Positions 37,275 through 58,238 of a stretch of 61,386 nucleotides of DNA are shown piece by piece. The translations under genes were made by a program, and so were the position numbers. The DNA lies in IMG/VR virus record IMGVR_UViG_3300017724_000002, positions 1-61,386 of that record; one strand, written 5' to 3'. The notes under the pieces were generated by a model. It was not told the origin of the DNA, ran no database searches, and worked only from the letters and a program-made list of their open reading frames with translations. How positions within the stretch are numbered: the stretch's first letter is position 1; each line of letters opens with the position of its first letter. The stretch is from a virus (taxonomy: Duplodnaviria > Caudoviricetes).

Positions 37275-37437
37275 CCACTCTCATATATCCGCAGTATGTG
37301 CGCTTTCCATCACGATAAATTCTGTGCGAAGCGTATAATACATTCGCAGTGTAACCGCAAGTATTACATCTGCGCATTTGCCTTGACTTCATTGAGTAAC
37401 CCAAACTGCCCCTATCCTTGCCGTATGTAACTCCCAT
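37261..37437 (-). CDS. Zn-ribbon microprotein (58 aa, ...RRCNTCGY...RTYCGYMRV...)
   Basis: CxxCG...CG pattern; fills the gap between ORFs. Confidence 0.55.
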   Translation of the reverse strand: MGVTYGKDRGSLGYSMKSRQMRRCNTCGYTANVLYASHRIYRDGKRTYCGYMRVVDNE

Positions 37438-38382: not shown

Positions 38383-38630
38383 ACTCCGTCACCTAAATGC
38401 TTGAATCTCTTTTCTGTGTCATTAATTAGCGCAAAATACATTGCTTTGTGAATTGGTATTCCGCAACGCAGTTTTGTTCCTTTCTTCGTTGACGCACCGG
38501 CCACTAAATCTTTCTTGTGCATTGCGCCTCTTTCTTTGAGCAAACGCTCGCAAGAGTCAAGAAACGGTTTGTATTTTGCAACATTCCCTGTTCTGCTACT
38601 TCTATAATGTACTATCTTATTCCTTTTCAT
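38349..38630 (-). CDS. Putative winged-helix (HARE-HTH-like) protein
   Basis: LLKERGAMHKKDLV...MYFAL...RFKHLGDGVWGL. Confidence 0.55.
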   Translation of the reverse strand: MKRNKIVHYRSSRTGNVAKYKPFLDSCERLLKERGAMHKKDLVAGASTKKGTKLRCGIPIHKAMYFALINDTEKRFKHLGDGVWGLAEKEVKV

Positions 38631-40932: not shown

Positions 40933-40957
40933 TGTTTAATGCTAAAGGGCTTGTTGG

Positions 40958-40966
40958 TATAAACCC
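40958..40966 (-). promoter_or_regulatory. Archaeal TATA box GGGTTTATA
   Basis: ~26 nt upstream of ATG 40932 (MCM operon), at the edge of element A. Confidence 0.7.
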
Positions 40967-40969
40967 TCT

Positions 40970-41190
40970 TATTTGTTTCAGACACTTTGAAAGAATTAAG
41001 AAATAAATAAAAGAGCCACTGCTCTTAACTTGTGCTAATTCTTTTAATTCCTCTTAAGGTGTGTAAGAATTATTCTAAAGGGGCGTTTTATCTAAACATC
41101 TAAGAAGAATAAAAAGAATTACGCTTCTGACCTCGCAGTGCGTCGATTATTTTCTTCCTATTTCTTTACAGGAGGTAAAAAGAATAAACT
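40970..41190. repeat. AT-rich dyad element A (homologous to 57850-58080 in inverted orientation)
   Basis: Shared blocks AATTAAGAAA, TTCCTCTTAAGGTRTGTAARAATTATTCT, TCTAAACATMTAAGAA, AAAAGAATTA, TTCCTATTTCTTT, GGTAAAAAGAAT. Confidence 0.85.
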
Positions 41191-41997
41191 CTTGACCCGG
41201 CTATGCTCAATTTCATCTATCTCTCGGAATAACATTCCCACATCACCTTTACGCCATTTCATTTTAGCACTAACTAACTCATGCCCCTTGTCGCATAACT
41301 CATAATGTCTTAGCATAATAGTGTTAATAATTGCAGTGGGCTTAGTGCGCTTTATCGTAGCGTGTGGGCGATAGTCTGCGCCATCTTCACCGCCCAAGAC
41401 CACGCTTGAAATCAGCACATCAGTTTCCAAATCAAATGCTTTACTCTCGCTCAAAGACTGCGCAATTACTAATCGAGGATAGTCACCGACTACCAGTGAA
41501 GGCAGCCACTTGATACCGACTCCATAAATGCGCATAGGCAGATAAAGACAGATTGATTCACCCCATGACTTCGGCGCAGTCAAGATTGTTTGGGGTTTGG
41601 TTTGCGCTTTAACAGACACCTGCGTATAACCATCAAACATATCAGTAGTGTTTGGTTCGGGCATATATGCGTGTGCGCACCTAAAAGCAAGAACATGGAC
41701 TTCTGTTTCGTGAATGAAATCTTGTAAGTCTTGCGCAAAAGTCTGCTCATAAACAAATTCGCCCTTCATTCCTTGATTCACAATTCTTCTTGGCATATCC
41801 GGTTGTACTGCGTCAATTAAATCCCAAATTGCGCTCTTTCCATCAACTGCCACACGATACTCACCCATGCGCAAGATAGCGAAGGGTGCAAAGAGTCTGC
41901 GCTTGCCTGCCCTGCGCCAACCAATAAATCGCTCAACAATAATATCTTGGGGGCGTGTCAAAATCCACTCGGCGCAGTATCTAAACGGTTGCATCAA
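41158..41997 (-). CDS. Hypothetical protein (start probably ~41868)
   Basis: Long - strand ORF; no family recognised. Confidence 0.55.
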   Translation of the reverse strand: MMQPFRYCAEWILTRPQDIIVERFIGWRRAGKRRLFAPFAILRMGEYRVAVDGKSAIWDLIDAVQPDMPRRIVNQGMKGEFVYEQTFAQDLQDFIHETEVHVLAFRCAHAYMPEPNTTDMFDGYTQVSVKAQTKPQTILTAPKSWGESICLYLPMRIYGVGIKWLPSLVVGDYPRLVIAQSLSESKAFDLETDVLISSVVLGGEDGADYRPHATIKRTKPTAIINTIMLRHYELCDKGHELVSAKMKWRKGDVGMLFREIDEIEHSRVKSLFFLPPVKK

Positions 41998-42021
41998 ATT
42001 AGAACAAGTGCCTCGTTCTTA

Positions 42022-42495
42022 TCAACCTGCGTTCAAGCAACATTTGCAACTCTCACGCTTAGAAAGGTTGAAATCAATATCTGAAAGATGCCGTTCATCA
42101 TCCTTCTCAAGAAGCCCTTTTTCTTTGGCTTCTTCGGTGAGTTTATCCCACTTTTTTTCTTGCTCGCTTCTTTGACTGAATGCTTTGGCTCTAAGAATAA
42201 GTCTTTTTTCTTCGTCGTCGCTTTCTGATTTGGGTTTGAGGATATGTCTTTTCTTAAGAAAGGGTTCTTCACCACCTGCCTTATGTGCATGTGCGTGCGT
42301 CTGTATGTTCTCAACGGCTCGCAGTTTTTCTTCTGCTTCAATCGCTCGCCTATACCACATCTGCATCGCTTCGTTCTTTACTTCTGCTTCCCGCTTGTAT
42401 GCTTCGCATAGTTCAATTAGAGAGTCAATCATTGTCGCTCTATCTATGGGTATAACTTCTTTGCCGGTTATGTTTTCAATTTGTTCAATCATCAT
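42022..42495 (-). CDS. Coiled-coil hypothetical protein
   Basis: E/K-rich helical ORF. Confidence 0.55.
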   Translation of the reverse strand: MMIEQIENITGKEVIPIDRATMIDSLIELCEAYKREAEVKNEAMQMWYRRAIEAEEKLRAVENIQTHAHAHKAGGEEPFLKKRHILKPKSESDDEEKRLILRAKAFSQRSEQEKKWDKLTEEAKEKGLLEKDDERHLSDIDFNLSKRESCKCCLNAG

Positions 42496-42627
42496 GTTTA
42501 TCTAAAGACTGGAAATATTTTTTCTCGGAAAATTTTCTGAATCATTCGGAAAACTTTTTTTTTCGTACTCCCTAAATAACTAAGTGTAAAAAATAAACCT
42601 AGTGCGCAAAATACATTAAGTGCAGTT

Positions 42628-43161
42628 TTAGGAAGCGGGATAATTAATTCCATAAATCCAATCTTGATTCCACCAATAAGGCGCAGGCCGACCTTTGCGC
42701 CATTCCGCAAAGTATGCCTTTTCTCCTTTGTAATACGCACGATATGCGCTTACTGCATCACCTTCCACCTTGTACTCGTCGGGCATACATTGCGCAAACT
42801 CGGTCAATTCCCCTTCGGGGATTCTGTCAGCCATCATAAACAAATGCTCAATGCCGTCTGCGCAGGCGTGAGTCTTGTCGAATCGCTTTTCGTATTCTTC
42901 GCAAAGCATTGCGGCGTGAAAGCAAGTCCACATATAATTTTCACTGGTTGCGCCAACCCAAAGAGTAGCGGGATGGTGCGCATAACCCCCCAAAAGTGGA
43001 GTTCCTTTTGATGTAAGAGGCATATCTGCATCTTCTGCGCCGTGTCTGCGTTGAGCCGAGCCAAGCATCTGAAAACACTCCACAATTAATTTTGGCACAT
43101 GCTTATCGCAATATGACATAGCCGCATAAATTGGCGATTCGTCAAGGATAAAAATATTCAT
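42628..43161 (-). CDS. Pyrimidine-dimer DNA glycosylase/AP-lyase family (T4 DenV-like)
   Basis: MNIFILD...CDKHVPKLIVECFQML...HHPATLW...LCEEYEKRFDKTHAC...QCMPDEYK...AYRAYY...WR..RPAPYWW signature. Confidence 0.85.
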   Translation of the reverse strand: MNIFILDESPIYAAMSYCDKHVPKLIVECFQMLGSAQRRHGAEDADMPLTSKGTPLLGGYAHHPATLWVGATSENYMWTCFHAAMLCEEYEKRFDKTHACADGIEHLFMMADRIPEGELTEFAQCMPDEYKVEGDAVSAYRAYYKGEKAYFAEWRKGRPAPYWWNQDWIYGINYPAS

Positions 43162-43334
43162 TCTAAAAACTCCCCAAACCATGTTTCGCCGTAGTGGTCG
43201 CAATCTTCGTTAGTGCATTCGTATATGCCTTCCTGCGCCCTGCGCACGCATTTATTGCAATGAGGGCATTTCTTGCGTGGTTTGCGTGGCATTCCAGTAA
43301 CCATCTTCGGGTTATTTTCCCAAACTTGACGCAT

Positions 43335-43613
43335 TCAAATGTCCTCTAGTTCTTTCATTTGCTTTTGCGCAACCTCTTGAAGTTTCTCAACATCTTCGAC
43401 AATGCCAAACATTTTATTCTGCACTTCGGGGTCATCTGTGATTCTTGCAACATCTGCGCACTTATCACATACGCTTTGCAATGTTTTGCTTAGTGCTTTC
43501 AAAGCCCAGTCTTGAATACCTGTTAACTTCTCATATCGTGATATTGTTTTTTGTTGTTCCTCTATCAAGCGAGCCGCCTTTGCGACAGTTTCATTCATTC
43601 CTTCTATGTTCAT
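43335..43613 (-). CDS. Coiled-coil hypothetical protein
   Basis: Helical ORF coupled to its upstream gene. Confidence 0.55.
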   Translation of the reverse strand: MNIEGMNETVAKAARLIEEQQKTISRYEKLTGIQDWALKALSKTLQSVCDKCADVARITDDPEVQNKMFGIVEDVEKLQEVAQKQMKELEDI

Positions 43614-43948
43614 ATTATGTTCGCCTCCTGTTCCGCCATTGCTTTAATCAATTGCGTTAGGCGCATGTGCGCCATTATCATATCTGTCTGCGTCTTTGCT
43701 TTATTGAACCAACCGATAACTTTCTGCGGTACATCTTGCCAACCAAACGCCTGCATAATGCGCACTTGAACCACCAAGTCGTTGCATGAATCGCAACATC
43801 GAGTATGGTCAAGCATACTTGCGTGGCTTGTGTCATCTGCGCTCAAAGGTTGCGCATTGTGGCCTTGAGTCCAATAGACCTTGCCTGCAAGGTCATCTTT
43901 GTGTTCTTTAATCGCTTTGTAGCATATCGAGCATATTTCTGTCATCAT
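43610..43948 (-). CDS. Zn-finger protein
   Basis: CSIC...GHNAQPL...RCCDSCNDLVV. Confidence 0.65.
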   Translation of the reverse strand: MMTEICSICYKAIKEHKDDLAGKVYWTQGHNAQPLSADDTSHASMLDHTRCCDSCNDLVVQVRIMQAFGWQDVPQKVIGWFNKAKTQTDMIMAHMRLTQLIKAMAEQEANII

Positions 43949-43993
43949 TTCATCTCCTGTGTTCCTTCCTGCGTGTTTAGTGATATAAACCCT

Positions 43994-44722
43994 TCACCAC
44001 TCCATGCCCCTTGTAGGGTCATCATCGTAGTCATTCATTGATAGTATGGTGTCATCCAGTGTATCTTTCACCGTTTCGGGAATTTGGTTCATTTCTGCGC
44101 TGAATCTTTTAGTGTTAAATTCATCTTCTGCGCCGTGTAACTCTTGCATCAATTCATTGACTCTTGAGAGCCAACCATGCGGTAATATTGATTCACAAAT
44201 GAGCATAGCCTCCGTGTTTTCGTGCGTTGTGTGCGTGGGGATTCCATTTAGCGCAGGGTGTTTTCCATGAACCTTTGAAATGATTGTAAAAAGGTGGTTT
44301 TTGCGCCTAAAGTCTTTATCGCCTTCTGATTCTTCGAGCATCATTTCAACACGCCTTCCAGTGACTTGACCGTTTCCCCAATTGCGCAAAATATCTTCCC
44401 ATTCTTGGGTGAACATTCCGTTGTTGCCTTTGCAACCTTCCGCCATGTCTAAGTGCGCCTTTACAATGTGAAATTCTATGCAGACTTCCCAAAGGTCAAT
44501 ATCCATTTTGTGCAAAATCTGCTCACACTCAACGAGTCTTGCCTGTGCTAACTGCGCCAAAATATCTGAAATATTAGAAAATGCGCTTGTGTTATCTGCC
44601 TTCAAAAATCCTAAATCGGGATTTAAGATTAACCCCGCATCGAAAAAAGTCTGATACAGAAAACCCACTGCGTCGCTTGGTGTTTCTATTTTCTTGCTCA
44701 TTGCGTCGTCTGCTTCGCTCAT
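43994..44722 (-). CDS. Hypothetical protein
   Basis: 242-aa ORF with GGTGA SD. Confidence 0.6.
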   Translation of the reverse strand: MSEADDAMSKKIETPSDAVGFLYQTFFDAGLILNPDLGFLKADNTSAFSNISDILAQLAQARLVECEQILHKMDIDLWEVCIEFHIVKAHLDMAEGCKGNNGMFTQEWEDILRNWGNGQVTGRRVEMMLEESEGDKDFRRKNHLFTIISKVHGKHPALNGIPTHTTHENTEAMLICESILPHGWLSRVNELMQELHGAEDEFNTKRFSAEMNQIPETVKDTLDDTILSMNDYDDDPTRGMEW

Positions 44723-44817
44723 TCTTCTTCACCTGCCAATACTTTTTCGTATTCTAAATGAACCTTTGGATGCCTTAAATGCAACCATAATAATAAATGA
44801 TTTAATTCAGTATTCAT
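44719..44817 (-). CDS. Microprotein (32 aa, MNTELNHLLLWLHLRHPKVHLEYEKVLAGEEE)
   Basis: Bridges two genes with ATGA overlaps at both ends. Confidence 0.55.
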   Translation of the reverse strand: MNTELNHLLLWLHLRHPKVHLEYEKVLAGEEE

Positions 44818-45305
44818 TCTTCTTCACCTCTTATTTCATAGTCTGCGTCTTTGCTTCCTGCGCTTGGGAATATCATGTGAGAAACTTTCTTTATCCCCAT
44901 AACCATCTCCAACATTCGGTCAACACTGCATCTCTCCGGCGTTTGCGGTATGCGCACATGAACGAGAACATCGCCAACGATTGCATAAGGTGCTTCTTGC
45001 GCAGGCATACCGAAAGCGGCATATGTGCCAATTAAGTTTGGTTCTTCGCCATAAATGCGCCCTTCTTCGTGCGCAATTACATCAATAATTTCAGCCATGA
45101 TTAGACCGGAGTTATCTTCTGCCGGTATTGGGAGTTTGACATTGCGCCCAAAGGTGCAATACTCAATCAGTCCACCGACTGCGCCTTGCATATCTTTAAG
45201 CGAAGGCTCGCCTTTTCCATTCTCTTTTTTTGCTATAATTGTAGGTTTGCTATTTGTTTCAATTTTTATCCAGTATTCTTCCAATTCAATCTCTCCTTGA
45301 TTCAA
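44814..45305 (-). CDS. DUF3846-like protein
   Basis: LKDMQGAVGGLIE...IAHEEGR...PNLIGT...IVGDVLV. Confidence 0.7.
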   Translation of the reverse strand: MNQGEIELEEYWIKIETNSKPTIIAKKENGKGEPSLKDMQGAVGGLIEYCTFGRNVKLPIPAEDNSGLIMAEIIDVIAHEEGRIYGEEPNLIGTYAAFGMPAQEAPYAIVGDVLVHVRIPQTPERCSVDRMLEMVMGIKKVSHMIFPSAGSKDADYEIRGEEE

Positions 45306-45422
45306 GCGTAGTGTCTGAGGGATATAAACCTGCCCCTCTTTTTATCCATATAACGCACGCTTTCAGCGTTTCTGCTAGTGTCCGTTTGCTCATCTGCTCA
45401 CGGTCTGCGGTGAATGCGTTGC

Positions 45423-47067
45423 TCATCTGCGCAACCTCCTTTCAATCATTGCGTCAAATTCTTCTTGTGTTTTCACAAGATAAATTGCGTGGCTGATTTG
45501 CTTGGGGCGCAAATACTTCTTTGCGTATGCTTCCGCCTTCTCATTTGCTTGCGCTATATTGCGAGTAAGGCGTGGGTTGCCCTCTATTGAAAATATGGTA
45601 TAGTCTGCGCCGAAACCAACATCAACGACAAAAGCGGGATATGTTGCGCTCACTGGAAAGCCTCCTTGAAATCTCCGCCGCATAAACATTCTTCGGCGCA
45701 GTCAGAATTTAATCTCCTGTTCATATCATCAACAAATCTGCTTGCATTTTCTGCGCTTGAAAAGAACGCAATGTGTCTGTTTGTGACTTCCTCGCCGTAC
45801 AAAAGACCGTCAAATTGTATTGCGTAGCCTTCGCCTGCGTCAGACCAAAGCATGTAAAACATTGATTTGCTCATTGTTCTTCACCCTCACAATAACATAT
45901 TTCTTCATCGGTTGAACCTGCGCATGATTTTTCGCATAATTCCATTCTTCTTTTCTTTCTCGCATCTTTAACTGCTTTCATTAATCTGTTTGCTATTCCT
46001 TTCATTCAATTGCCCCCTCTAAAGTGGTTATTGCGCTCTCTAAAGCAATATGCGCCTCATCTAACTCGCCTTCTGCTTCTTCAAGTGCCTGCGCAGATTC
46101 CTCTAACGCCTCTCCCATAGGAGTTGATTCAAGCATCCACTCGCAGATGTTGTCAAACTTTTCTGATTCTTGCGCCGCATAATCGCCGACCCAATTCCTC
46201 AATTCTTCAATTTCTGAAAGCATTTCTTGCAGTCTGCCTAATCTTTGCGCTATTTTTTTCCGGTCTTTTTGGTTCATTCCTCTTCGCCTCCTTCTTCTGC
46301 GCCACAGTCATTGCAAACTGCGCCGGTCATAGTATCACTATAATTCAAATGCTCGCATTCCGCCTTTGGCTTGCGCACCCATAGCGCACCGTCGCCGTTT
46401 CGCAAACTGATGCAGTCAATTGTTGAATGCGCAAGAGTATGATAAATTCCGATTCTGCCATCGGGCAAGCGCATAGCGTGTTGGTGCAAGACTGCGCACC
46501 AGTCGCCGCCTAATTCCTCCGGCAGTCTGATGGTTTCGTATTGCGTGGTTGGAATGAACATTCCGTCGCCCATATCCACTGCGCCTGCGCCATCAGTCCA
46601 CCCAGTCGGGTTTCCGAACATATCAACCGAGTCGCCAATTGGCTCTCCCCATTCATTTCTGCGCATCAAAGACCCGCCTCCGTCATTGCTTCTGAAACTG
46701 CGCTTGCAATGTCAATATCTTCGATGACTGCTTCGGTAGCCTTTGGCTTTGTGTATGTGTATGTGCGCTTCTTCGGCGCAATTGTTACAGTGTTGTGCTT
46801 TGCGCTTCCGTTAAAGTGCGCTCTTGTTGCGGCTGAGTTTGTCATTACTACGGTAATGTCGCCAGTCTTGCGCACATATACGCCTTTGCTGACTTGTTTC
46901 ATTTCTGCGCCGGAAATCGGGCAGATGCCGTTCATGGCTTTTTTGTTCATTTTTGCGTGCCAGTCTGACACGCCTCCATCCGGTCTGCGGCACAAGATAC
47001 CGACGACGGCATCACCTGCGACGCAATTTAATTTATATGGCTCATAATCTTGGGGTATATTCAACAT
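45423..47067 (-). CDS. Cluster of small early-type hypothetical ORFs (45423-45689, 45650-45874, 46002-46277, 46274-46669, 46666-47067)
   Basis: Coupled - strand ORFs downstream of the TATA box at 47106-47114. Confidence 0.55.
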
Positions 47068-47115
47068 TTTTTGTTCCTCCTTAACCTATCTCAAGCAGTG
47101 CGGGGTTATAACCCT

Positions 47116-47823
47116 TTAGGCATTTCCTCCGCTTCTGACCTTCTTTATGGCCGTTTTGACCTGTTCGGCGGTCAAGGGCAAGCCTTCGCCTGCGTACTGC
47201 TTGAGTGCGTCAATATTTACAGTCCATCGGAAGCGTGACCGTAGCGCATGAACAAGGAAGGCCAATTCTTCATATGCTCTTTGACCCGTTTCACACATAC
47301 CGTTCACCTTCGCCATGTGCGCCCTCGCCTTGTAGCCTCCGCCATACTTGAGTGTGCGCCCCATGTGCTTGACTTGGTGGCATCTCGGACATAATATAAT
47401 TATGCGCTCAAGATTCTGAACACAGTTTGCGTCGTCATAAGTCCAAACTTCATGCGCCTCCACTGCATGTTTGCGCCCTTGATTCAAACCGGAATCTCCG
47501 CAAATCTCGCACACATGACCCGCTTCTGCGTAGCACTGCTTGCGCAGTTTATCCCACTGCGTCTTTGTCAGCATACTGCGTAAGTTTGCGCCCCATGTGC
47601 CACTAGGCACTAACTCAATTGTGAGTTTGGGTTTCAATAATTCTGCGTGCGCCGTTGCCATAGCAACGCTCGTTTCATATCGTTCTTCTGCCTCGCATGA
47701 TGCGCACACTGGAACACCGCCAATGTTTGCGCCGTAAAGGTCGGCAGATTCTCCGCAGGGGCAAGTCCAGTTTTGGTTCGTCATATCCGAACCGACTCCA
47801 TTCCTGTTTATAGCGTTGCTCAT
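47116..47823 (-). CDS. HNH endonuclease
   Basis: LTIELVP...W..NLR...WDKLR...CEICG...EAHEVW...LCPRCHQVKH. Confidence 0.85.
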   Translation of the reverse strand: MSNAINRNGVGSDMTNQNWTCPCGESADLYGANIGGVPVCASCEAEERYETSVAMATAHAELLKPKLTIELVPSGTWGANLRSMLTKTQWDKLRKQCYAEAGHVCEICGDSGLNQGRKHAVEAHEVWTYDDANCVQNLERIIILCPRCHQVKHMGRTLKYGGGYKARAHMAKVNGMCETGQRAYEELAFLVHALRSRFRWTVNIDALKQYAGEGLPLTAEQVKTAIKKVRSGGNA

Positions 47824-47944
47824 GCTTCAACCCCCAAATTGCCCCAAAGTGCCAATATAGGGAGAATCGGCAGACATGCGCCTATGATAAGCGGGAACAT
47901 GAACGCAGGCATTCGCACAGAAAAGCGGAACAAGTGAACGGTAA

Positions 47945-49485
47945 TCATTCTTCTTCGCCTCCGTTGTTCAATGCTACCATCACCTGCTCAAAAAGGTCAT
48001 GGTCTGAAATGGTGGTTTCTGATTGTTTGCAAGTGCATGCACCTTCGCCAAACCCTTCTATGAAGGAACGGAATTGACATTCGTTAAATGGCGCAAGCAT
48101 AAGCATTTCTGCAAACAACATGAGCAAACCTTCGGTTTCTGCGCTCTTGCCTAAGTCAGACATGAAAGACGCTCTCGCCGTCTGAACATCGGGCAGTAAG
48201 TCCAATGCTCTTTGTTTAGACCATTGCATATGCGCCATTCGGCAGTTACCAGTGCAAACCGGCTCATCTGCGCATATATGCGTGTTGAAGGCTTCGCCTC
48301 GCACACTCAGCGCAGGGGCAGGCTCTTGCACATAGTCAAAAATTGAGGTTTGAATATTGGCAGGGGGTGCGGGATTATTTTTGGAGGGTGAGCAACCCGC
48401 CGCCCCGACTGCCTTTTTGAATGCAAATTCCATGAATGACGCATACGCCCATAGGACTGCGCCAATGATTAATATACCGAGAATGACATTCATTTCAAAT
48501 CGACTCCCATGAAATTTCATCTTGCTCGACCTTCTTAAAAAGAAGCCATGTTCCTTCCATGCGCTTGACCCAGTAGCCATGCCCCTTTATCTCCGCTTTG
48601 CGTGTGCGCCATTCATCCCAAAAGGTTTCGTTGCAATTGCCATACCATGTTGTGCGCTTTTTGCTCATCTTCATTTCGATGCCGAAAATCTCAAACCTTG
48701 TATAAACAGGGCGTGGTTCGGGGTGAACCTCTAATTCTGCGCCGTCAAGCCACTTCGCCAATTTTTCTTGAGCGAAGACTGTCGCTTTAGCGATTGCATC
48801 CTCTTCTTTGTGCGCAAGATTCTGAACAAATTGGCAATAGTGGGAGGTTGCGCCGTCAGATTTGGTGGACTTTACCTCAAGGTAAAGGGTATAAAATTGC
48901 TCTTTCTCGCCCGTTCTGCATACATGAAGAATACCGTCACGGCGCACTGTTTTTAGTGTGGATTGACCTTTGGCAGTGAAGGTGTTAGGGTGGACTGCGC
49001 TCATTGCTCATCAACCTCCGCCTTAAGTGCGCACAATTCATCAATCATTTCTTGCAATTTTCTTTGAATTGTTCCAAAGTGAACGCTCATCTTCTCCAAA
49101 TCGCTCATAGAAATTGTTTCATCTGAAAAGTGGCGGCGATTGTTAAGACAATCCCAGTGGAAATCAACGCCTTCCTCATAGTCATGCGCCTTATCCCTCG
49201 CCTCTCTTAGCATTTTTATCATGCCGTTTATTTTGTTGCTCATTCTTGTGCGCCCCCTGCAATGATTACCTTTTCACCGATTTTGACCTCAAAGAACATC
49301 GGGATAAGACCGACTTCAACGGTTTGGGTCAACAACCATTCAGAAAATAATTCTTCTGAATTGATTTCAGATGGCATAACGGCCACCATAAAACCGATTT
49401 CATTTGTTTCGCAGTGCATCGTTTTCGCAGTGAAAACGGGTACTACATCAGCAGGCTCAATATTGGGGTTCTGTGCTTCCTCCAT
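47945..49485 (-). CDS. Cluster of early hypothetical ORFs (47945-~48520 with TM, 48495-49004, 49001-49243, 49240-49485)
   Basis: Coupled ORFs downstream of the TATA box at 49509-49519; ATG 49485 is leaderless-spaced. Confidence 0.55.
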
Positions 49486-49508
49486 GCTATACCCTACCCA
49501 TTCAAGGG

Positions 49509-49519
49509 ATATAAACCCC
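49509..49519 (-). promoter_or_regulatory. Archaeal TATA box GGGGTTTATAT
   Basis: 24 nt upstream of ATG 49485. Confidence 0.7.
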
Positions 49520-49987
49520 ATACCCAAAATGCACCACCTGCCCCACATTATGCGAGTAATTAATTTAATGCGTATGCCTGCATGTGCCTGCATGTGCCTC
49601 ATGTGTGTATGTGCATGTATGTGCGTGGGTGCAGGCTCGGCGGGAAGGCAAAATTTTTCTTAGAGTTTCATTGCGCATATAGGCAGGGATAACCGCAGGA
49701 ATTTGCGCCGAACATTGTTCAGAACGACGCACTGCTCTCAAGTCCTTCGAGGTTTTCGGTATGGCTTGCGCTCAATCCGAATCAATCAGAATTTTTGCGG
49801 ATTTGCAAAAACCAAAAACTGCGCAAAATGCGCAGATTCAAAAAAAATAAAAAAAATCGCCCCGTTGGGTCGCAGTGGGCTGAATTGACACGGGGCGCAC
49901 ATCAATTCTTGAGCCGTTTTGTTTGTTTTTCAATCCTCCTTTTTTGTTTTTTTATTCGTTCTTTAGCCTTTCAGTCTGTCGTTTTGC

Positions 49988-51022
49988 TCAGTTTTTCTTT
50001 GCTTTGATTTTGAGCAAAGTCTTAACCACTGCGTCAACTGCTTTCTTCAATTCATGCTTTTTGTCGTTACTTCTAGGAATGCACTCAACAACATCGAAGT
50101 GGTCGCAGTGCATCATTTCTGCGGCTTTTTCTGCTAATTCGTAGGGCAAATTTTCTGAGCAACCCGAGCCGCTAGACCTTCGCCCGGTCAAAACCTTGCT
50201 CGCAGTACCCCGAAAGCCAAAGCCAACGGTTCTAAAAGCCCATGCACTCATGGCACTTGCCGCCTGCTCAAGATTTAGCGGCGCAGTTGCCGACTTTACC
50301 TTGATTATTGCGCAACCCGATTTATCACCGTTCACGACGGTTGAATAGGCCACTGAGTAGATTTCAACACATTGACCTTGAGCCTCAAGGATTTGCGCCG
50401 CCGCCATAGTTGCCGCCATTCTGAACATCATTATATCGGCATTAATGCCTCCTAGTGCATTGATTGGAACGAATAACCCGATAGTTTCCCGCTTGATTCT
50501 TCTCTTTCTTTTGTTTCTGAAAATATTTTCATCACCGTTGAGCAGTGCGTCGATTGAGAAGCCAATCATTTTTCGAGGTTCGGCTTGCATTTTGCGCAGT
50601 GAAACCACGATTTCAGAAGTAAAATTTTCTAAACCTTTGAATGCGTTTTTCGATACACTGCGAGCCTTTTCAGCGTCGGGTTTCCATGCTCGGCCTTGAT
50701 GTGCTTCATCAATAATATCTGAAACTGTGCCGGTTCTACCATACCATCGTTGGTTATTGCCCGGGTCATCCATAAGTACGGCGCAGTCATGCTTTTCAAT
50801 GCTTCTAACTGCGGCACTCATCGAAGGGGCAACGCCAATTTCACATATCCCGCCGGAATATTTGACCTCAGCATATACGACACCTTCGCCGTCTGTCTTT
50901 TTCTTGTTAAATTTAGCCATATTTTTCACCTCCATAGTTTGAGATTTTGCGCCATTAGTCGGGAGTCTTTCGAGTCCGTCATTCAGTGGCGCAGTACCCC
51001 GATTATGCGCCTCCTGCGACAT
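49988..51022 (-). CDS. vWA-like partner of MoxR ATPase (start probably ~50921)
   Basis: IGLFVPINALGG...AAAQILEAQGQCVEIY...IKVKSATAPLN...AFRTVGF; directly downstream of the AAA gene. Confidence 0.65.
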   Translation of the reverse strand: MSQEAHNRGTAPLNDGLERLPTNGAKSQTMEVKNMAKFNKKKTDGEGVVYAEVKYSGGICEIGVAPSMSAAVRSIEKHDCAVLMDDPGNNQRWYGRTGTVSDIIDEAHQGRAWKPDAEKARSVSKNAFKGLENFTSEIVVSLRKMQAEPRKMIGFSIDALLNGDENIFRNKRKRRIKRETIGLFVPINALGGINADIMMFRMAATMAAAQILEAQGQCVEIYSVAYSTVVNGDKSGCAIIKVKSATAPLNLEQAASAMSAWAFRTVGFGFRGTASKVLTGRRSSGSGCSENLPYELAEKAAEMMHCDHFDVVECIPRSNDKKHELKKAVDAVVKTLLKIKAKKN

Positions 51023-53222
51023 TCAATTGGCCGTCGTATACCGACTGCGGAATCATTGCGCACTCAATTAAATCTGAGCCGTCACCCTTGCCAACTGAGA
51101 AGTGATTCGCTATACTGCGAGCCATTTCCTCATCAACAGTTTGCGCCCACCTTGCAATAATTGCGTTCAAAGTCCAACCATTGCGAGCCATTGCGAGGCC
51201 ATGACTCAAGGCACGATATGAGAACGAAACGCTAGACTGCGCCGTTAATTCGCAAACTTTTTCATATGCCTCAAACAACTGCTCAGATGATGCCGGCTCG
51301 CCGGAATCGCTACACTCAACCTCTTTTGGCGCACTTTTCAAACCACACATACCGGCCATAATACGGACACTGCGGCGATAATGAACGACGCAAGCACTGA
51401 AACGGTCAACCAATGACTTATCCTGTTTTTGCGCCGCCACATATGCCGGTGAATAACTTAGCCCGGTCGTATTTCCTGCGGCGATTATGAAGCAATTTTT
51501 ATGCATCTGATGAACCTTCCCGGTTGCCGGGTCAACAATTGACTTATTGGCTAGAACTCCGTTTAAAACGGTCATAACGGCGTTATCTCCCTTGTCTATC
51601 TCATCAACAAAAGCAAGGCCACCCTCAAGTATTGCCTTAACTAGACCCGATTTATTCCAAGTCGTTGCGCCTTGCATCATGTTGTAATTTTTGCCGCCTA
51701 GTAGTTGGCTTGCTTCCATATCAGCAAAACATATGACCTCGCCATAATTTGCGTGTTGTTTTTTGGTTATTTCCCCGGCTTCAAGTAGCATGTCGTTGAT
51801 AGTTTTGACACAGAATGACTTCCCTATCCCGGCATCACCATTGAGCCAAACGGGCAACGGATAGCCGTTATCTGTCCTTGAAGTTATGATATTATACACG
51901 GTTGGCACTTGGGGATGATATAGACCCGTAATTTTGACAGGTTTTGACTTCTTGGATTTTTGAACCATCAACGGCGCAATCGGTTGACTGCTCTCTATTT
52001 TTTCGATTAATTCATCATATTTTGCGTCGATTTTTTGGTCTGTGTGGTTGATTTGGTCGTTTAATCTCAAATAGTCATTATTGGCTCTAGGTACAACGGT
52101 TGAAGCATCGAAATGTTCAACAATTTTCCAAACAATGTTTTGAACTGCGCTCTCATCAATTTGAGCATTTGCGCCGCCTAAATTTCCATCAAGTAAATCA
52201 ACAATTTGCGCCGCAATGACCTCTTTTGACTTTGGCTCATGCTTCAAATTATGTGTTGATTTTGTGCCGTTCAAGTCAATAGTCAACTTTTTGGTTGGTT
52301 CTTTTGTCGGTTCTGATGTTCTCAATTTCATTTTTGGATGGTACGCAGTCTGCGTTTTAGGTGGGGTTGGAACTGTCGTTGGTACTGTCGGCACTGTCTG
52401 AGAATTTCCGCCTAGAATTTCATTGATATAGTAGGCATTTTCAACGGCGCAACCGTAGCAGTGCGGCTTATTTTGTGCATAGTTTGGAGATGGTAGCATG
52501 ACCTTATACTCGCCTGTTTGAATTTCACAATGACAGTCAACGCAAGAAGTTGAGTTTTTGGAGTGCTTTCTTGCTCTCCATGCCCCTTTTACATTGCGGC
52601 CAAACTGCTCATACTCGACGGGCATTTTAGACCTAGCCATCAGACCAACGCCAAACAGACCACTGCTCAACAATTTAGGCATAAATAGCCATGCAATACC
52701 AAAAGAAAGTATCACAATACTCACGCTAAACACAACACTGCGAGCCAATAGCCAAACTTCCCCGGGAGGATTTTCTGATAAATAGCCTTCATCAATGTTA
52801 CAATCAGCGCATAGACCGTTATCAAATAGCGGCTCAGTGGTGCTTTCAACCACTAGACAGACCGGGCAAATATCCCAATCTTCAACCTCTTTAACCTCAG
52901 ATAGCGGCGCAGTGTCCGTTTTAGGTTGGTTTACTAGAGAAGAAAAGAATCTTCTCAAGAGTGCGCCCCTAAGATTTTGTCGCTTTGAGGCTAATTCTAA
53001 ACGGTGGACTGCTCGCTTAAACGAGTGTCTAGTAGGTAGCATTTGAGATGGTGTGATTATCAGACCATCGGCGGCGCAGTTTGTTGTTTCATATTCGGAT
53101 GACTCAGCGTTAGAGTCCTTGCTTATCATTTCATAGTCAACGGCGCAGGGTGCTAAAAAGACCACTGCGACCATCAACAACGCATTTATTATGCTTGTTT
53201 TAGTTTGCATTTTGCTCACCAT
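51003..53222 (-). CDS. MoxR/CbbQ-type AAA+ ATPase with long N-terminal TM and Zn-finger extension
   Basis: VWLNGDAGIGKS, LVKAILEGGLAFVDEIDK, HKNCFIIAAGNT, DKSLVDRF; start 53222 lies ~22 nt downstream of a TATA box. Confidence 0.85.
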   Translation of the reverse strand: MVSKMQTKTSIINALLMVAVVFLAPCAVDYEMISKDSNAESSEYETTNCAADGLIITPSQMLPTRHSFKRAVHRLELASKRQNLRGALLRRFFSSLVNQPKTDTAPLSEVKEVEDWDICPVCLVVESTTEPLFDNGLCADCNIDEGYLSENPPGEVWLLARSVVFSVSIVILSFGIAWLFMPKLLSSGLFGVGLMARSKMPVEYEQFGRNVKGAWRARKHSKNSTSCVDCHCEIQTGEYKVMLPSPNYAQNKPHCYGCAVENAYYINEILGGNSQTVPTVPTTVPTPPKTQTAYHPKMKLRTSEPTKEPTKKLTIDLNGTKSTHNLKHEPKSKEVIAAQIVDLLDGNLGGANAQIDESAVQNIVWKIVEHFDASTVVPRANNDYLRLNDQINHTDQKIDAKYDELIEKIESSQPIAPLMVQKSKKSKPVKITGLYHPQVPTVYNIITSRTDNGYPLPVWLNGDAGIGKSFCVKTINDMLLEAGEITKKQHANYGEVICFADMEASQLLGGKNYNMMQGATTWNKSGLVKAILEGGLAFVDEIDKGDNAVMTVLNGVLANKSIVDPATGKVHQMHKNCFIIAAGNTTGLSYSPAYVAAQKQDKSLVDRFSACVVHYRRSVRIMAGMCGLKSAPKEVECSDSGEPASSEQLFEAYEKVCELTAQSSVSFSYRALSHGLAMARNGWTLNAIIARWAQTVDEEMARSIANHFSVGKGDGSDLIECAMIPQSVYDGQLNVAGGA

Positions 53223-53243
53223 TCTGTCGTTAGTCCTTAGAGG

Positions 53244-53254
53244 ATATAAACCCC
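53244..53254 (-). promoter_or_regulatory. Archaeal TATA box GGGGTTTATAT
   Basis: ~22 nt upstream of ATG 53222, next to the first array motif. Confidence 0.7.
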
Positions 53255-53268
53255 AAACATCAGACCAA

Positions 53269-54798
53269 AAAACCGTTGTACTGAAAGCCAATAGGCTCGC
53301 AGTGTGCCTTGAGTCAAAGAGGGGTTTGATTGATATACTAAACCTTGACGCACCCCGGTTTTGATTTTCACTCAGCGCAGTTTCAAAACAGGCTTGCAGT
53401 ACATCGTTTATGGCTCAGTACGGCGTTTTGAAAAATGAAAAATCAAAATCAGCGCAGTTTGAAAATTAATAGCGGCGCAGTCTATCATTTAGAAATTGCG
53501 CAGGCTTTCAGTATAACGGTTTAGTCGAGCAGGCTTTCAGTCTATCGTTTAGGTTAATGCGCCGATTTCAAACAGGCTTTCAGTATAGCGTTTTTCTCTT
53601 ATAGATTCTGAAAATGGTCGGGTTGAAGACCGGACACTAAAACGACCAAAATAGGCTCTCAGTCTATCATTTAGAGTCAACGACGCAGAATTATTAATTG
53701 GCTCGCAGTCTATCGTTTAGGGATTTCGGCAATTCCCCGGGTTTCTAAACGGCGCACTGCTAAGGTGTAGTTTTTGCACCGATGGTAAAATAGCGGCGCA
53801 GTCTATCGTTTAGGGTGTTTTATCTGATTCCAAAGTGATTTGCAAAACTCCCGAAACCGGAAATTGACGGCGTAGGCTCTCAGTCTATCGGTTTCAATCG
53901 GTAAAGGGGCAACGGCGCACTATTGAACCATTGGTTAACTAGCGGCGACATAGCCAAAATGGCCGCAGGCTCTCAGTATATCGTTTATGTCCGGTCAAAA
54001 CAGGCCGACATGGGGCTTTCGGTCTAGCAGTCTATCGTTTAGACGCAGTGCATCGTTTAGGGTTTGCTCAGAACCCCCCCTCCGCTTCGCAGTCTATCGT
54101 TTAGAGAGGGAAATTTTGACCCATTTACCGGAAAACGGCAATTCAAAATAAAAACGCAGTACAACGGTTTTAACTTTTGAAATAGAAAACTGAGCAAAAC
54201 GATGATGCAGGAAGGCGAGATATGAACACTGCGAGCCTGTTTTTTGGCGCAAAATTACCTCAAACAAAATTAAAACCGTTGCACTGAAAAAGTCAGAAAA
54301 GCCTCATTTCATCCATTTTGCTCAATTTCCATAAATGCGCAGTTTGAAACCGTAAAACGGTAAATATGGTATTCTTATTTCAATTAATATGTTCACAAAC
54401 CGGAAAGGGTGGGGCGCAGTCTATCGGTTTTCAATCCCCGGGAGTCAATTGTCTGATGTTTGATAATTGGAAAAATGCGACGCAGTACAACGGTTATGGG
54501 GTGGGTAGGCTCTCAGTGATGCGTTTTTGGTTTTTGCTCAAAATGTCTAACAATAGCAAATAAGAGCAAATTTCCATCTGAAACAAGTCCGACGCACACC
54601 GTTTAACCTCAGTGGATTTTATTTCAATTTGCGCAGAAAAATGAAAGACAGGCTCTCAGTGTGTCGTTTTTGATTAGTTTTTGGCTCAATTTTTAGTGTC
54701 GATATGCTCAAAATATCAGAAAATCGTTATTAATTATTAATTTTTGATTTATTTTGACTTCTCAGATGAGCAAAACAGGCTCTCAGTGCATCGTTTAG
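53269..54798. repeat. Non-coding array of ~25 degenerate ~22-bp motifs (consensus ~YAGGCTYKCAGTNYATCGTTTAG)
   Basis: e.g. 53530 CAGGCTTTCAGTCTATCGTTTAG, 53652, 53699, 53791, 53966, 54088, 54776; ~4 inverted copies (53269, 53745, 54227, 54272). Confidence 0.9.
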
Positions 54799-54922
54799 GA
54801 AAATCAAACGGCGCAAAAAAATATGCTCTAAAATGCGCCAAAAACTGCGCATACTGGCGGCGGCTTACACGCCAACCACCGCAAAAAATTAGCCGTATTT
54901 TTCTGAAATTGGGCTTATAAAC

Positions 54923-56413
54923 CTAAAAAAACGGTACAAACCTTTTATTTCTTGAAATTCTTTTTGTTTTTTTGCCAGCAGACCACTTTGACGCATCTAA
55001 TGACCCTCCTATGACTGCTAAACCAGTGTTTTGTGACGACTTTACTTGGTCTATGGCGTGTGCAAGAGCCATTACGGTATCATTATGCTTGCCTTTGTCC
55101 GTTATATCGCCGTTTTTCCATACATGCGACTCTAACTCGTCAAGTAGTATGCTCATAACACGCCTTGTTTCGTCATTTCCGTATGGTATAATGACTTTTT
55201 CTTGTTCAAACCATACTCTAAGGCGATTTAGCAAGCCTTGCTTGAGTGTTTTATTAGATACCTTGCTCATTTTAAGATTTAGAGTAAGACCCTTTTGGTT
55301 AATAAGTGATTGATACAAAGACTGAAAACCTGCGCTTTCAAATGCAAATACTGGGTGCTTGTATGCGTCATCGAAGTCTTTAATCACTTTAATTTGTTTG
55401 GCAGGAGGGAAATCGTTGCGTCGCCACAAATTGACTATGTGAACATTGCCATCTTTGTCTTGTCTAACTACAATTGCAACGGTATAGTCTTGTCCGATAC
55501 CATGTGAAGGGTCAAAACCTACAATATAGTCGCCTTCATGCAATTTTTGCTTTTGCAATATTCTATCCATGTCAAGATTTTTACGAGTAAGTGTTTGTGG
55601 GAATACTGCGCTATCATCATCGACAACCATACAAAGATACTCTTGCGCAAATGCTAACTCGCCAATAGCCTCTCTTTGTTCAAGTAAAAACTCAAGAGGT
55701 CGTTCATCAGCCCAAAGACAGACAGGTTTAATGTCGGGGTCATTGCGCCATTCATCATAGTTAACAATTGCACCTTTTTGCCATGTTTCCCATGCGTCAT
55801 TACCTAACATTTCAGTATGATAAAGGTCATTCATGCTCATAGGTGTGCCAACACAAAACAAACTGGTTTTAGGTGATAGCATAGGGGTAAGTTTTTTTCT
55901 GAACCACTGCTGATATACTTCATAGGACATATCATTTTGGTCGTCAATAATGTCATCAAGAGCAATTGCGGCGGGGTGTTCACCACGAATACCCGAACCA
56001 ACCGATGTAGCCTTAATCCATGCACCATTTGTTAGACGAAGTTCAAATCTGTTACCTTTTGTTAAATCAACCTTTTTAGATAATTCGGGGTGTCTTTTAA
56101 GGTCTTGGCGTATTTCTTCTAAACGATTCATAGCAAGGTCTTTATTTGCTGAAAATAACCAAATAGTAAAAGGTTTGCCACGCCACTTTTCAAAAAGTAA
56201 CATATGTAATAACTTTACACGAAGCGTTGTGGACTTAGAATGGTCACGGGGCGCAATAATACAAACACGGTGAACCTGCTTTCCTTTATTGTTTCCATAT
56301 AAGTCAAGCCATGTTTGAATATGGTCGCCCCATTTATACCCAAGCCATTCATAAAAATGGCGTATGTCATATCTGCTACGCTCAAGATGAAAGGTTGTCA
56401 TTAAACGAACCAT
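54923..56413 (-). CDS. terL: Terminase large subunit
   Basis: APRDHSKS Walker A, GIRGEHP...LDDI Walker B, VGTP, FAQEY, nuclease GFDPS...DYT, HNDTVMALA. Confidence 0.95.
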   Translation of the reverse strand: MVRLMTTFHLERSRYDIRHFYEWLGYKWGDHIQTWLDLYGNNKGKQVHRVCIIAPRDHSKSTTLRVKLLHMLLFEKWRGKPFTIWLFSANKDLAMNRLEEIRQDLKRHPELSKKVDLTKGNRFELRLTNGAWIKATSVGSGIRGEHPAAIALDDIIDDQNDMSYEVYQQWFRKKLTPMLSPKTSLFCVGTPMSMNDLYHTEMLGNDAWETWQKGAIVNYDEWRNDPDIKPVCLWADERPLEFLLEQREAIGELAFAQEYLCMVVDDDSAVFPQTLTRKNLDMDRILQKQKLHEGDYIVGFDPSHGIGQDYTVAIVVRQDKDGNVHIVNLWRRNDFPPAKQIKVIKDFDDAYKHPVFAFESAGFQSLYQSLINQKGLTLNLKMSKVSNKTLKQGLLNRLRVWFEQEKVIIPYGNDETRRVMSILLDELESHVWKNGDITDKGKHNDTVMALAHAIDQVKSSQNTGLAVIGGSLDASKWSAGKKTKRISRNKRFVPFF

Positions 56414-56615
56414 CGTCACCACTCCTGTTAAAAATCGGGAAGCCGCAGTATTCAGCCAAAGCATACGCTAGCGACTCAACCTCGCTTCTTTCAAGCATTA
56501 TACCAACAACCATTTCTTCTGCAAACAAATTAAATGCAATATAATCCTCGCCCATATCGGCAATACGCAATTGTTTGTCGGGGCTAATCCATATGGGCAT
56601 CTGCTTTCCTTCCAT
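56382..56615 (-). CDS. Small hypothetical protein
   Basis: Coupled between phosphoesterase and terL. Confidence 0.5.
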   Translation of the reverse strand: MEGKQMPIWISPDKQLRIADMGEDYIAFNLFAEEMVVGIMLERSEVESLAYALAEYCGFPIFNRSGDDGSFNDNLSS

Positions 56616-57810
56616 TTAGTGTGTTTAATAATCTTAGTCCATGTCGAAGGTCTGTAAATGCCTGTATATCTCTTGTTTCTGAATCAAGAATAACCATAGG
56701 TGATGTTGGGCGTTCTCTTGGAAATCCGCACATTTCACCAAAACTGTCAATAGTCTTATATGCGCCGGGTCTTATTGCATAACGCTCGACTGCATGACGA
56801 GTAAATGGAACAACAGACGGTGTATGGTGGTGTCCTATAACTCCAATATCGAAATCACACTCTCCGTCATCCCACATTTTCTTAATTACACGGCTTGGGT
56901 CAAGGTTTGAATTGCCTCTTCGCTTGTGTCGAATACTAAGGTGATAAGGAACATCGCCGTGAATAACTTTGAGGTTTAACTCATACGGATGATACAAAAC
57001 TCCCCTGTCTTGAGCAAGACGCTTTAGTGGGTCATAATCTGTTGCACCGGCAGTCCAAAGGTCGTGATTACCTGCAACAATAGCCATAAGTGATGTTGGA
57101 GTCATGTTAATGTAGTGTTCACATAACTGCCACTGGATAGAAGGCGGAATTGGTGCTTTCATTGCAGGTCGTGGCTTGTCAATCATAAAGTTATCAATGT
57201 AGTCGCCTGCGTGTATAACATAACAATCGGGGTGTCCTTCAATTACTTCTGTGTCACGGCGTAGTCTTTCATGGTCGCAAAAAGGATTACCTATGTGTTG
57301 GTCACTTTGAAATGCAATTCCAATGTATCGTTGCTTAGACTTCATGTGAAAAACTGCCCAACGAGCATCTTCATTTGCAAGAATTGCCGCTTTTGAGCGT
57401 TCTTCTATAACATTCCATAGATTTTCACCTGTCGATGCAGACTTTTTCAAATGTTCAACAATAAAATGCGGTGTTTCTGTTTGTTTGACTGCTTTACGCT
57501 CATACGCACGCCTAACTCTATTATCCCAACCAGTCTTTGATATTTCGGGAAAACGCTTTGCCATAATCATTGCTAACTGATTCATGTTGCCGTCAAACTC
57601 CATTGGTATTTCTGCATTGTAGTCAACCACTTCAATACTTGGAAAAATGTCGGGTTCATGTTGTTTTAACATACGCAAACGCCAACGGTGCGATTCTGCT
57701 TCTATTTCGGGCATAATATTCGCCATGTGTCTTGAAAACTTAGCCATATTACCATCATAATGTTCTATCTCTTTTCGGACTGTATTAGTATAGTCGTCAT
57801 CACTGCTCAT
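56584..57810 (-). CDS. Calcineurin-like metallophosphoesterase with N-terminal helical repeats
   Basis: SDQHIG, AGDYIDN, AGNHD, GHHH motifs. Confidence 0.9.
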   Translation of the reverse strand: MSSDDDYTNTVRKEIEHYDGNMAKFSRHMANIMPEIEAESHRWRLRMLKQHEPDIFPSIEVVDYNAEIPMEFDGNMNQLAMIMAKRFPEISKTGWDNRVRRAYERKAVKQTETPHFIVEHLKKSASTGENLWNVIEERSKAAILANEDARWAVFHMKSKQRYIGIAFQSDQHIGNPFCDHERLRRDTEVIEGHPDCYVIHAGDYIDNFMIDKPRPAMKAPIPPSIQWQLCEHYINMTPTSLMAIVAGNHDLWTAGATDYDPLKRLAQDRGVLYHPYELNLKVIHGDVPYHLSIRHKRRGNSNLDPSRVIKKMWDDGECDFDIGVIGHHHTPSVVPFTRHAVERYAIRPGAYKTIDSFGEMCGFPRERPTSPMVILDSETRDIQAFTDLRHGLRLLNTLNGRKADAHMD

Positions 57811-57849
57811 GTTCTGTCCTTGTTTATATTAACACTTAAAGGCTTGCTT

Positions 57850-58080
57850 TAATTAATTCTTTTTACCACATAGAAAGAAATAGGAAAAAATAAATCGTTG
57901 CACTAAAAGCCTAATGTGTTAATTCTTTTATTTGTTCTTATATGTTTAGAATAAAAGGCGCATTATTCTGTAAGAATAATTTTTACATACCTTAAGAGGA
58001 AATAAAACAATAAAGGGAAATCGTGATACTCAAGCCCATTTATTCTTTCTTAATTTTTTCTTTCGCCTTGAAAGAATAAA
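57850..58080. repeat. AT-rich dyad element B at the strand-divergence point (origin candidate)
   Basis: Reverse complement aligns block-by-block with 40970-41190; lies between the divergent phosphoesterase and portal genes. Confidence 0.85.
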
Positions 58081-58238
58081 CCAACCAACCAAAATCCACC
58101 ATATTACTTCAATAACTATCAAAGCAATGCCACCCTTTGTTATAATCTCCGCAATATCCATAAATCATACAGTCCTTGTCTGACTTTTTATTGTTTTTCG
58201 GGCATACCTTGATAAAGCAAGCATTCATAACACACAAC

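Follow-up and report, generated by a model that had tools for sequence, protein, structure and literature searches.

One asymmetric motif of about 21 bp is shared by a 25-site non-coding array, two dyad elements and a gap at 49.6-50.0 kb in the tailed-virus (Caudoviricetes) DNA IMGVR_UViG_3300017724_000002. The window, meaning the whole stretch of 61,386 nucleotides analysed here, is a complete IMG/VR record, made up of 61,263 bp and a terminal repeat of 123 bp. The initial annotation had proposed that these regions carry a single motif and form one cis-acting system. That they carry one motif was upheld by the conservation of the cores, by frozen silent sites in an in-gene copy and by the positions that the sites keep in related genomes. 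Our confidence that the array, both dyad elements and the gap share one selected motif family is much higher than our confidence in the mechanism built upon it. Since the motif is shared and selected, and the dyad sites are conserved beyond the clade that carries the array, a single recognition system is the economical reading. Our preferred proposal, held at rather less than even confidence, is that one reader would recognize all of these sites, with the dyad elements acting as replicator and operator and the array as a control platform resembling iteron or origin recognition box (ORB) loci.

The motif is bipartite, consisting of GGCTCGCAGT, four semi-variable bases and CGTTT. A first weight matrix, seeded on CAGT-N4-CG, was judged to be biased against variant cores, and a relaxed matrix (PWM2) was therefore derived from 10 related arrays, which together supplied 228 sites. 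Even so, C opens the core in 220 of these sites, and the two matrices gave the same picture relative to chance. Relatives were obtained through the terminase large subunit, TerL (54923-56464, - strand), a search that returned 31 related loci; five near-complete genomes were fetched.

The array lies at 53223-54922, between the terL stop (54923) and the gene for an AAA+ ATPase, whose called start at 53222 leaves 1.7 kb up to that stop. It contains 25 sites of at least 9 bits, 21 on the + strand and four on the - strand, at irregular spacings of 18-143 bp. Its terL-proximal module (54648-54800, + strand) holds two sites of 30.7 and 34.5 bits, 127 bp apart, and the stretch between these top-scoring sites at 54648 and 54775 is 80% A+T (54693-54760). 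Sites at about +126 and +253 past terL are present in all array-bearing relatives, and each of four arrays has 22 or 23 sites of at least 12 bits despite their differing layouts.

The array has little coding potential, with no open reading frame (ORF) of at least 70 amino acids wholly inside it under table 11 and none longer than 113 amino acids when TAG is read as Q or code 4 is used. Protein-coding repeats were rejected on this ground, and also because the spacings are not multiples of three and the copies within genes fall in different frames. A CRISPR array was likewise rejected, given the spacing, the variation between repeats, their mixed orientation and the lack of any report for this region from Tandem Repeats Finder. 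Neither an Rfam family nor a tRNA was found in the array, and a scan for sigma-70 promoters and terminators gave counts at the level of shuffled sequence. In cellular genomes, the two-site pattern (pairs at most 30 bp apart) returned 15 loci, all single or low scoring, and no cellular array; three small cellular clusters turned out to be antisense strands of lysine- and alanine-rich coding repeats. The viral sequence itself was found as contigs in 22 sequencing runs, all of DNA and mostly labelled viral metagenome, and in no RNA run. Where four runs were compared over the array, it was nearly unchanged across separate samples, with contigs breaking inside it and with no ends and no clear inversions.

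The array begins only 122 bp past terL, and the site nearest to terL is both the most conserved and the highest scoring, which could suggest a packaging recognition region that is read by the terminase small subunit and coupled to the adjoining terL. We consider this highly improbable. No small-terminase gene was recognized beside terL, the contigs over the array show no ends, and the 123-bp terminal repeat lies within an ORF far from the array, so that no end maps there. The head of the replication string carries the motif as well. The pac and cos sites known so far contain a few protein sites, as against 25 here.

Directly past the terL stop, the block at 54800-54922 (read on the - strand) is conserved across relatives. 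It comprises a TATA-like word, TTTATAAGCC, followed by TTTTTTGCGGTGGTTGGCG, a variable G+C hairpin and TTTTTGGCGCA. This block might serve as a terminator or encode a small RNA; Rfam gave no match for it.

Dyad element 1 (40933-41157) precedes the replication-gene string, which runs from 40932 down to 22402, while dyad element 2 (57811-58040) lies between a 43-amino-acid ORF and the Mre11-like nuclease and terL genes. Both represent a single element of about 150 bp, one copy being inverted relative to the other, and the words at 41127 and 57889 occupy homologous positions in it. Their cores are 71% A+T (40988-41126) and 76% A+T (57915-58017, with the palindrome TTATTCT-TAC-AGAATAA) against 58.9% for the genome, which together with the A+T-rich stretch between the best array sites constitutes an origin-like grammar.

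All five strings quoted in the initial annotation were located where it had placed them. Under PWM2, the copies in the gap scored 23.2 bits at 49963 (+) and 16.0 bits at 49718 (-), and site A of dyad element 1 (41127-41152, +) scored 15.8 bits. The two sites of dyad element 2 are co-oriented in the window and weaker: site A (57889-57914, -), with TAGT replacing CAGT, scored 10.4 bits, and the degenerate site B (58015-58040, -), with GAGT replacing CAGT and overlapping the stop codon of the 43-amino-acid ORF, scored 5.7 bits. Chance expectations were taken from 200 dinucleotide shuffles of the 55.6 kb outside 49240-54922. Four matches of at least 9 bits were observed there against 3.9 expected, so the copies at 57889 and 58015 are indistinguishable from chance within the window alone. 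At 15.8 bits and above there were two matches against 0.18 expected (P=0.02). On the window alone, then, the copies at 49.7-50.0 kb are clear and the copy at 41127 is significant.

The relatives separate these copies further. Site A of element 1 reaches at least 9 bits in all five whole genomes (20.9 bits in G001, 12.9 in G002, 9.4 in G003 and 23.1 in G004, beside the window), and G002 and G003 have a second element-1 site about 120 bp away that has been lost in the window. Of 13 aligned genomes, 10 score 9 bits or more at the position corresponding to 57889 and several carry the canonical form ACAGGCTTTCAGT-N4-CGTTT (CAGT), so that this copy is supported through its relatives. The position corresponding to 58015 reaches that score in only two of the 13, and this copy is barely recognizable as the motif. 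G004, whose TerL is 75% identical, lacks the array and has only four matches of at least 9 bits; three of these are in dyad element 1, in dyad element 2 and about 175 bp past terL. At 15.8 bits and above, G004 has three matches against 0.10 expected (reached in 0 of 200 shuffles). The copy retained past terL in array-less relatives is the site nearest to terL.

Two observations were made beside the dyad elements. The 43-amino-acid ORF (58030-58161, -) encodes a hydrophobic core and a basic tail (MDIAEII...RRKKKLRKNKWA) and is conserved in at least nine relatives in the element 2 alignment. The word AAGAATAA occurs 12 times against 5.0 expected, five of the 12 being in or beside the dyad elements (41105, 41180, 57972, 58040 and 58072), and it may be a second site type of these elements.

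Selection on the motif is apparent from two comparisons. Between G000 and G001, identity within the array is 88.0% in the cores (367/417) as against 73.7% in the spacers (944/1281; Fisher p=3e-10). The second concerns an in-gene copy (37784-37809, -; 26.1 bits) within the ORF at 37437-38156, a genuine gene, where it encodes EKARSEAI and is almost identical in four genomes. Silent variation among these genomes affects none of the six conserved-residue codons in the copy, but 81 of the 133 elsewhere in the gene (p=0.0045).

The wider family was reached with a second query, a winged-helix/zinc-ribbon protein described below. This search gave 149 IMG/VR relatives, of which 80 loci were kept; 38 of these, all distinct and extending 7 kb or more upstream of the winged-helix gene, were used, the other 42 being too short or duplicates. 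Within the 2.7 kb of the element-1 position, 17 of the 38 have a match of at least 14 bits and 32 have one of at least 10 bits, whereas the window shuffles predict approximately 0.01-0.05 matches per 2.7 kb at 15.8 and 12 bits. In the distant genomes, the sites are mostly arranged as inverted pairs, spaced 108-158 bp, with an A+T-rich core between them that has a palindrome of its own, and the right-hand site lies about 75 bp ahead of the first gene of the replication string. We therefore regard the dyad element with its motif arms as old and conserved. The array is a later, lineage-specific expansion, found in the clade with TerL at least about 80% identical. Across the wider family the motif is nearly constant, and co-variation between motif and reader gene is therefore unable to discriminate among readers.

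Orientation of individual units is free. The first site past terL is on one strand in the window and in loci L008, L009 and L015, and on the opposite strand in L010, L013, L016, L018, L019 and L038 as well as in the array-less L020-L024. Comparison of L013 (~11675-11700) with L015 (~8067-8092) shows one unit, identical even in its variable middle, that has flipped in place with its flanks unchanged. Single-unit inversions between close relatives were also seen at about +427/+432 past terL in several loci. The AAAC...GTTT ends of the units might allow such flips by template switching. Free orientation argues against promoters or a role at the RNA level and fits protein binding to DNA in which position matters over direction.

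The in-place inversions, the turnover of array layouts between G000/G001 and G002/G003 and the existence of close relatives without the array might be expected of selfish or template-switch-prone repeats with AAAC...GTTT ends, for which the matches in the dyad elements would be source copies or chance look-alikes. This explanation seems very unlikely to us, given that the cores are conserved over the spacers, that the silent sites at 37784 are frozen, that the unit has no hairpin potential of the repetitive extragenic palindromic (REP) type, and that single sites persist at the same three places both in genomes without the array and throughout a family with proteins only about 40% identical.

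Array-less relatives have palindromes of other kinds. The non-coding region past terL, or its equivalent, is full of them in L021 (11500-12625), L064 (5800-6300) and L027 (8930-9115), such as AAGTCTTAC...GTAAGACTT and CCCCCCTTAGGGGGG with a period of 51 bp, and carries only one or two copies of the motif.

The initial annotation had described the copies it noticed as all intergenic and had proposed testing matrix hits for intergenic enrichment. The scan showed that the motif is not confined to intergenic DNA. There are 22 matches of at least 9 bits outside the array, 18 of which fall within ORFs by crude gene calls, one such ORF being a doubtful 58-amino-acid frame. The five quoted copies are indeed non-coding, except that this doubtful frame crosses 49718. 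All matches lie between 37.8 and 58.3 kb, with none in the 25-kb structural module. The motif field outside the array (49403-53292, both orientations) contributes 19 matches of at least 9 bits, mostly within the genes at 49240-49602, 49988-51022 and 51003-53291, and 13 matches of at least 7.5 bits were counted in 49240-53291 against 0.18 expected. Because in-gene copies lie in different reading frames (the copy at 52724, for instance, encodes LARSVVFS in a frame that differs from that of the copy at 52995), they are DNA-level sites and not a protein repeat. One of the matches, at 58279, lacks conservation in relatives and probably arose by chance.

Past the DUF7192 gene, the gap at 49603-49987 contains the sites at 49718 (-) and 49963 (+), a third at 49864 (+) of 12.5 bits, and a terminator-like hairpin (49819-49835). 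At its edge, 49575-49624 is a tandem TGCCTGCATG repeat of 5.3 copies, and a much longer low-complexity stretch of the GCATGTGTGCG type occurs in the array-less L021 (14300-15100). Within the ATPase gene, the copy at 52995-53020 (-) encodes FKRAVHRLE, which is invariant among ATPase homologues only 30% identical overall; here DNA site and protein motif may constrain each other.

Taken with the array, these copies bring the count to 44 sites within some 5.5 kb, a dense zone that has the array at its centre and tolerates either orientation. Such a zone brings to mind a centromere-like or genome-organizing platform (the Epstein-Barr virus (EBV) family of repeats, N15 sopC or ParB-type spreading) that would maintain or segregate an episome, and the similar copy number of the array in four genomes would suit this role. 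So would the absence of integrase families among the ORFs scanned (40 against Pfam and 20 against PHROGs). The same Pfam scan of 40 ORFs found no ParA, ParB or other partition family, and the array is absent from close relatives, so that we regard this explanation as quite unlikely.

In the mechanism that we favor, one sequence-specific protein would read the site of about 21 bp. In its old, conserved state the system consists of the dyad element, with two sites 108-158 bp apart around an A+T-rich palindromic core. One dyad element heads the replication-gene string and the other the nuclease-terminase string, with a single further site just past terL. In the clade of the window, that single site has been multiplied to about 25, with extra copies spreading into the adjoining genes. 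The dyad elements would be the working sites of the factor, each a replicator doubling as an operator, whereas the array, a platform of large capacity, would retain or pair the factor and, in the manner of iteron control loci, determine the firing frequency of the dyad elements. The earlier suggestion of one factor for array, dyad elements and early-region boundary is thus sustained as far as a single selected motif family goes; protein binding, origin function and titration are what we infer from the sequences. Candidates for the reader are a conserved viral winged-helix/zinc-ribbon protein and a host initiator.

Several findings weigh against this mechanism. Scans of 40 ORFs against Pfam and of 20 against PHROGs revealed no Rep, Orc1/Cdc6 or other initiator family. 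The ATPase that adjoins the array is a membrane-anchored protein of the MoxR/CobS type and not an initiator. Site B of dyad element 2 barely qualifies as a copy of the motif. Helical phasing of the sites is not robust, with P values of about 0.04-0.05 in two arrays and of 0.08 and 0.97 in the other two. The extremes of the cumulative GC skew coincide with the switches in gene direction at about 22 and 58 kb, and no origin could therefore be mapped by skew. The array is kept in relatives with TerL about 80% identical or more, and there are close relatives that do not have it. Finally, both dyad elements are just upstream of gene strings, where a plain operator fits equally well.

The main rival is accordingly a purely transcriptional switch, in which the motif would be the operator or upstream activating sequence through which a viral regulator sets the timing of the replication and nuclease-terminase strings, and the array a sink or enhancer. 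Both dyad elements precede the first gene of a co-directional string by 50-220 bp, TATA-like words occur about 30 nt ahead of the ATG, the right-hand site in distant relatives is similarly close to the first gene, and the replication gene string holds several small winged-helix-like proteins. On the other hand, 25 sites and about 19 in-gene copies far exceed what known operators need, paired sites around an A+T-rich palindrome are origin grammar as well, and elements 1 and 2 have opposite orientations relative to local transcription. We see this switch as a serious possibility, though on balance an unlikely one.

Another form of the idea takes the dyad elements as replicators and the array as setting copy number or episome maintenance, in a two-part system like EBV oriP; in its boldest version, the reader would be the host initiator. 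We think this arrangement unlikely. In this form, the array would evolve as single units multiply and flip in place and as additional sites are written into coding DNA. A host reader would explain why the motif stays fixed while the viral proteins drift to 40% identity. Like oriP, which has about 20 sites in its array, the window combines a multi-site array with separate dyad elements in which paired like sites surround an A+T-rich core. The window differs in that its array lies between two dyad elements separated by 16.7 kb, where in EBV the array is 1 kb away from the dyad element, and no EBNA1-like protein is known in this virus.

The control-platform proposal can be set against other known systems. 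As in iteron origins with a control array (P1 oriR/incA, F ori2/incC), there are many asymmetric sites, mostly co-oriented and irregularly spaced; the repeated sites of such origins are 17-22 bp and mostly direct, and those of the window have a core of about 21 bp with 21 of 25 co-oriented. An A+T-rich stretch that could serve for unwinding lies beside the repeats (54693-54760), and a second set of sites elsewhere could hold or pair the reader. Unlike iteron systems, the window has no Rep gene between or beside its site sets, which are flanked by terL and the MoxR/CobS-type ATPase gene; its sites spill into coding DNA and flip in place; its array, at 1.7 kb, is far larger; and the host is probably an archaeon. 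The E. coli datA locus is similar in idea, being a non-origin cluster of initiator sites that lowers free initiator, but it has only a handful of DnaA boxes, against 25 sites in the window.

Archaeal oriC regions with ORB or mini-ORB sites for Orc1/Cdc6 are a closer parallel in the distant relatives, where inverted boxes flank both sides of an A+T-rich region upstream of replication genes. Some euryarchaeal origins have clusters of shorter boxes. The motif is not obviously similar to the ORB consensus, and the window differs in having no orc1/cdc6 among its scanned ORFs. Herpes simplex virus oriS and oriL likewise combine an A+T-rich palindrome with boxes for an origin-binding protein on either side; they exist in several copies and lie in the promoter regions of replication genes. 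Unlike the window, that virus has no multi-site array, and no UL9-like protein was identified here.

The leading candidate for a viral reader is the winged-helix protein with a C-terminal Cys4 zinc ribbon encoded at 34733-35218 (-). Its structure model (predicted local distance difference test (pLDDT) score of 87) matches 2od5 with Z 10.6 and PadR-type regulators with Z 8-9, weak Foldseek rows include TFIIE-alpha, TFE-alpha and Orc1, and the third helix is its most conserved segment. On the strength of this model, the protein is a candidate motif reader. In locus L154, the first gene past the dyad element (4734-5150) encodes an extra winged-helix-like protein of 138 amino acids (MPRPQNKRLTERVYHYLREQDKPMTSHEIV...) that is absent from the window and is possibly another reader.

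A replicative helicase is a possible function, as a lead only, of the conserved 434-amino-acid P-loop protein (38617-39921, -), which belongs to the gene string headed by dyad element 1 and is the P-loop gene nearest to that element. One neighboring cluster carries an SF3 helicase family on 10% of its members. The protein had no Pfam or PDB sequence match, and its structure model was unusable (mean pLDDT 42). PDB sequence searches with three ORFs found nothing.

The gene layout places these features in context. Genes on the + strand run from 58176 round to 22294 and form the portal and structural module, while those on the - strand run from 58161 down to 22402. The latter begin with the 43-amino-acid ORF, the Mre11-like nuclease, TerL, the array, the AAA+ ATPase, the DUF7192 gene, many small ORFs and an HNH nuclease, and continue with the 434-amino-acid P-loop protein, an RFC-like ATPase, a deoxynucleoside monophosphate kinase, PolB and the PD-(D/E)XK and ERCC4 nucleases. 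The two copies of the terminal repeat (1-123 and 61264-61386) fall within an ORF that runs from 60346 across the end of the record to about 1494. Physical ends are therefore less likely than a circular or permuted genome or assembly, and the repeat probably reflects a circular or permuted genome.

The initial annotation had referred to magroviruses. In Philosof et al. 2017 (PMC5434244), these are described as having genomes of 65-100 kb with PolB, clamp, RFC, AEP primase, MCM, a RadA-like ATPase, SSB and nucleases. The replication gene set of the window looks archaeal-type from its sequence, and the closest matches of PolB in phage collections are haloarchaeal tailed viruses, at 23% identity. 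The genome has 61,263 bp, and MCM, AEP primase and clamp were not recognized among the scanned ORFs, in which PolB, the RFC-like ATPase and the ERCC4 and PD-(D/E)XK nucleases are present; the label is unverified.

A search by term of the main texts of three magrovirus and Poseidoniales papers (PMC5434244, PMC10160649 and PMC11706807) gave no description of such arrays, and a literature search combining iterons, archaeal viruses and replication origins found only unrelated work. The family is abundant among marine tailed viruses, probably of archaea. For these uncultured viruses, the motif family provides a bench-testable entry into how replication starts or is limited and how genes are timed, since it is defined by a precise 21-bp word, by conserved places heading the replication and packaging strings and by a clade-specific expansion to 25 sites. 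Sister genomes with and without the array serve as natural controls, and the in-gene copies and in-place flips show how a family of binding sites may expand within a compact viral genome.

The ATPase adjoining the array (51003-53291, -) belongs to the MoxR/CobS/midasin type and has membrane segments and two zinc ribbons in its N-terminal part. A search for relatives through this protein found none in viral contigs, while those through TerL and the winged-helix protein succeeded, and PADLOC returned nothing meaningful for it or for the DUF7192 protein (49988-51022). Between G000 and G001 the ATPase is 35% and the DUF7192 protein 31% identical, compared with 96% for TerL; the ATPase is therefore part of a fast-changing cassette and a poor initiator candidate. 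The pair forms a hypervariable cassette (49988-53291 in the window and 15233-18567 in L047), within which the N-terminal 300 amino acids of the ATPase are better conserved.

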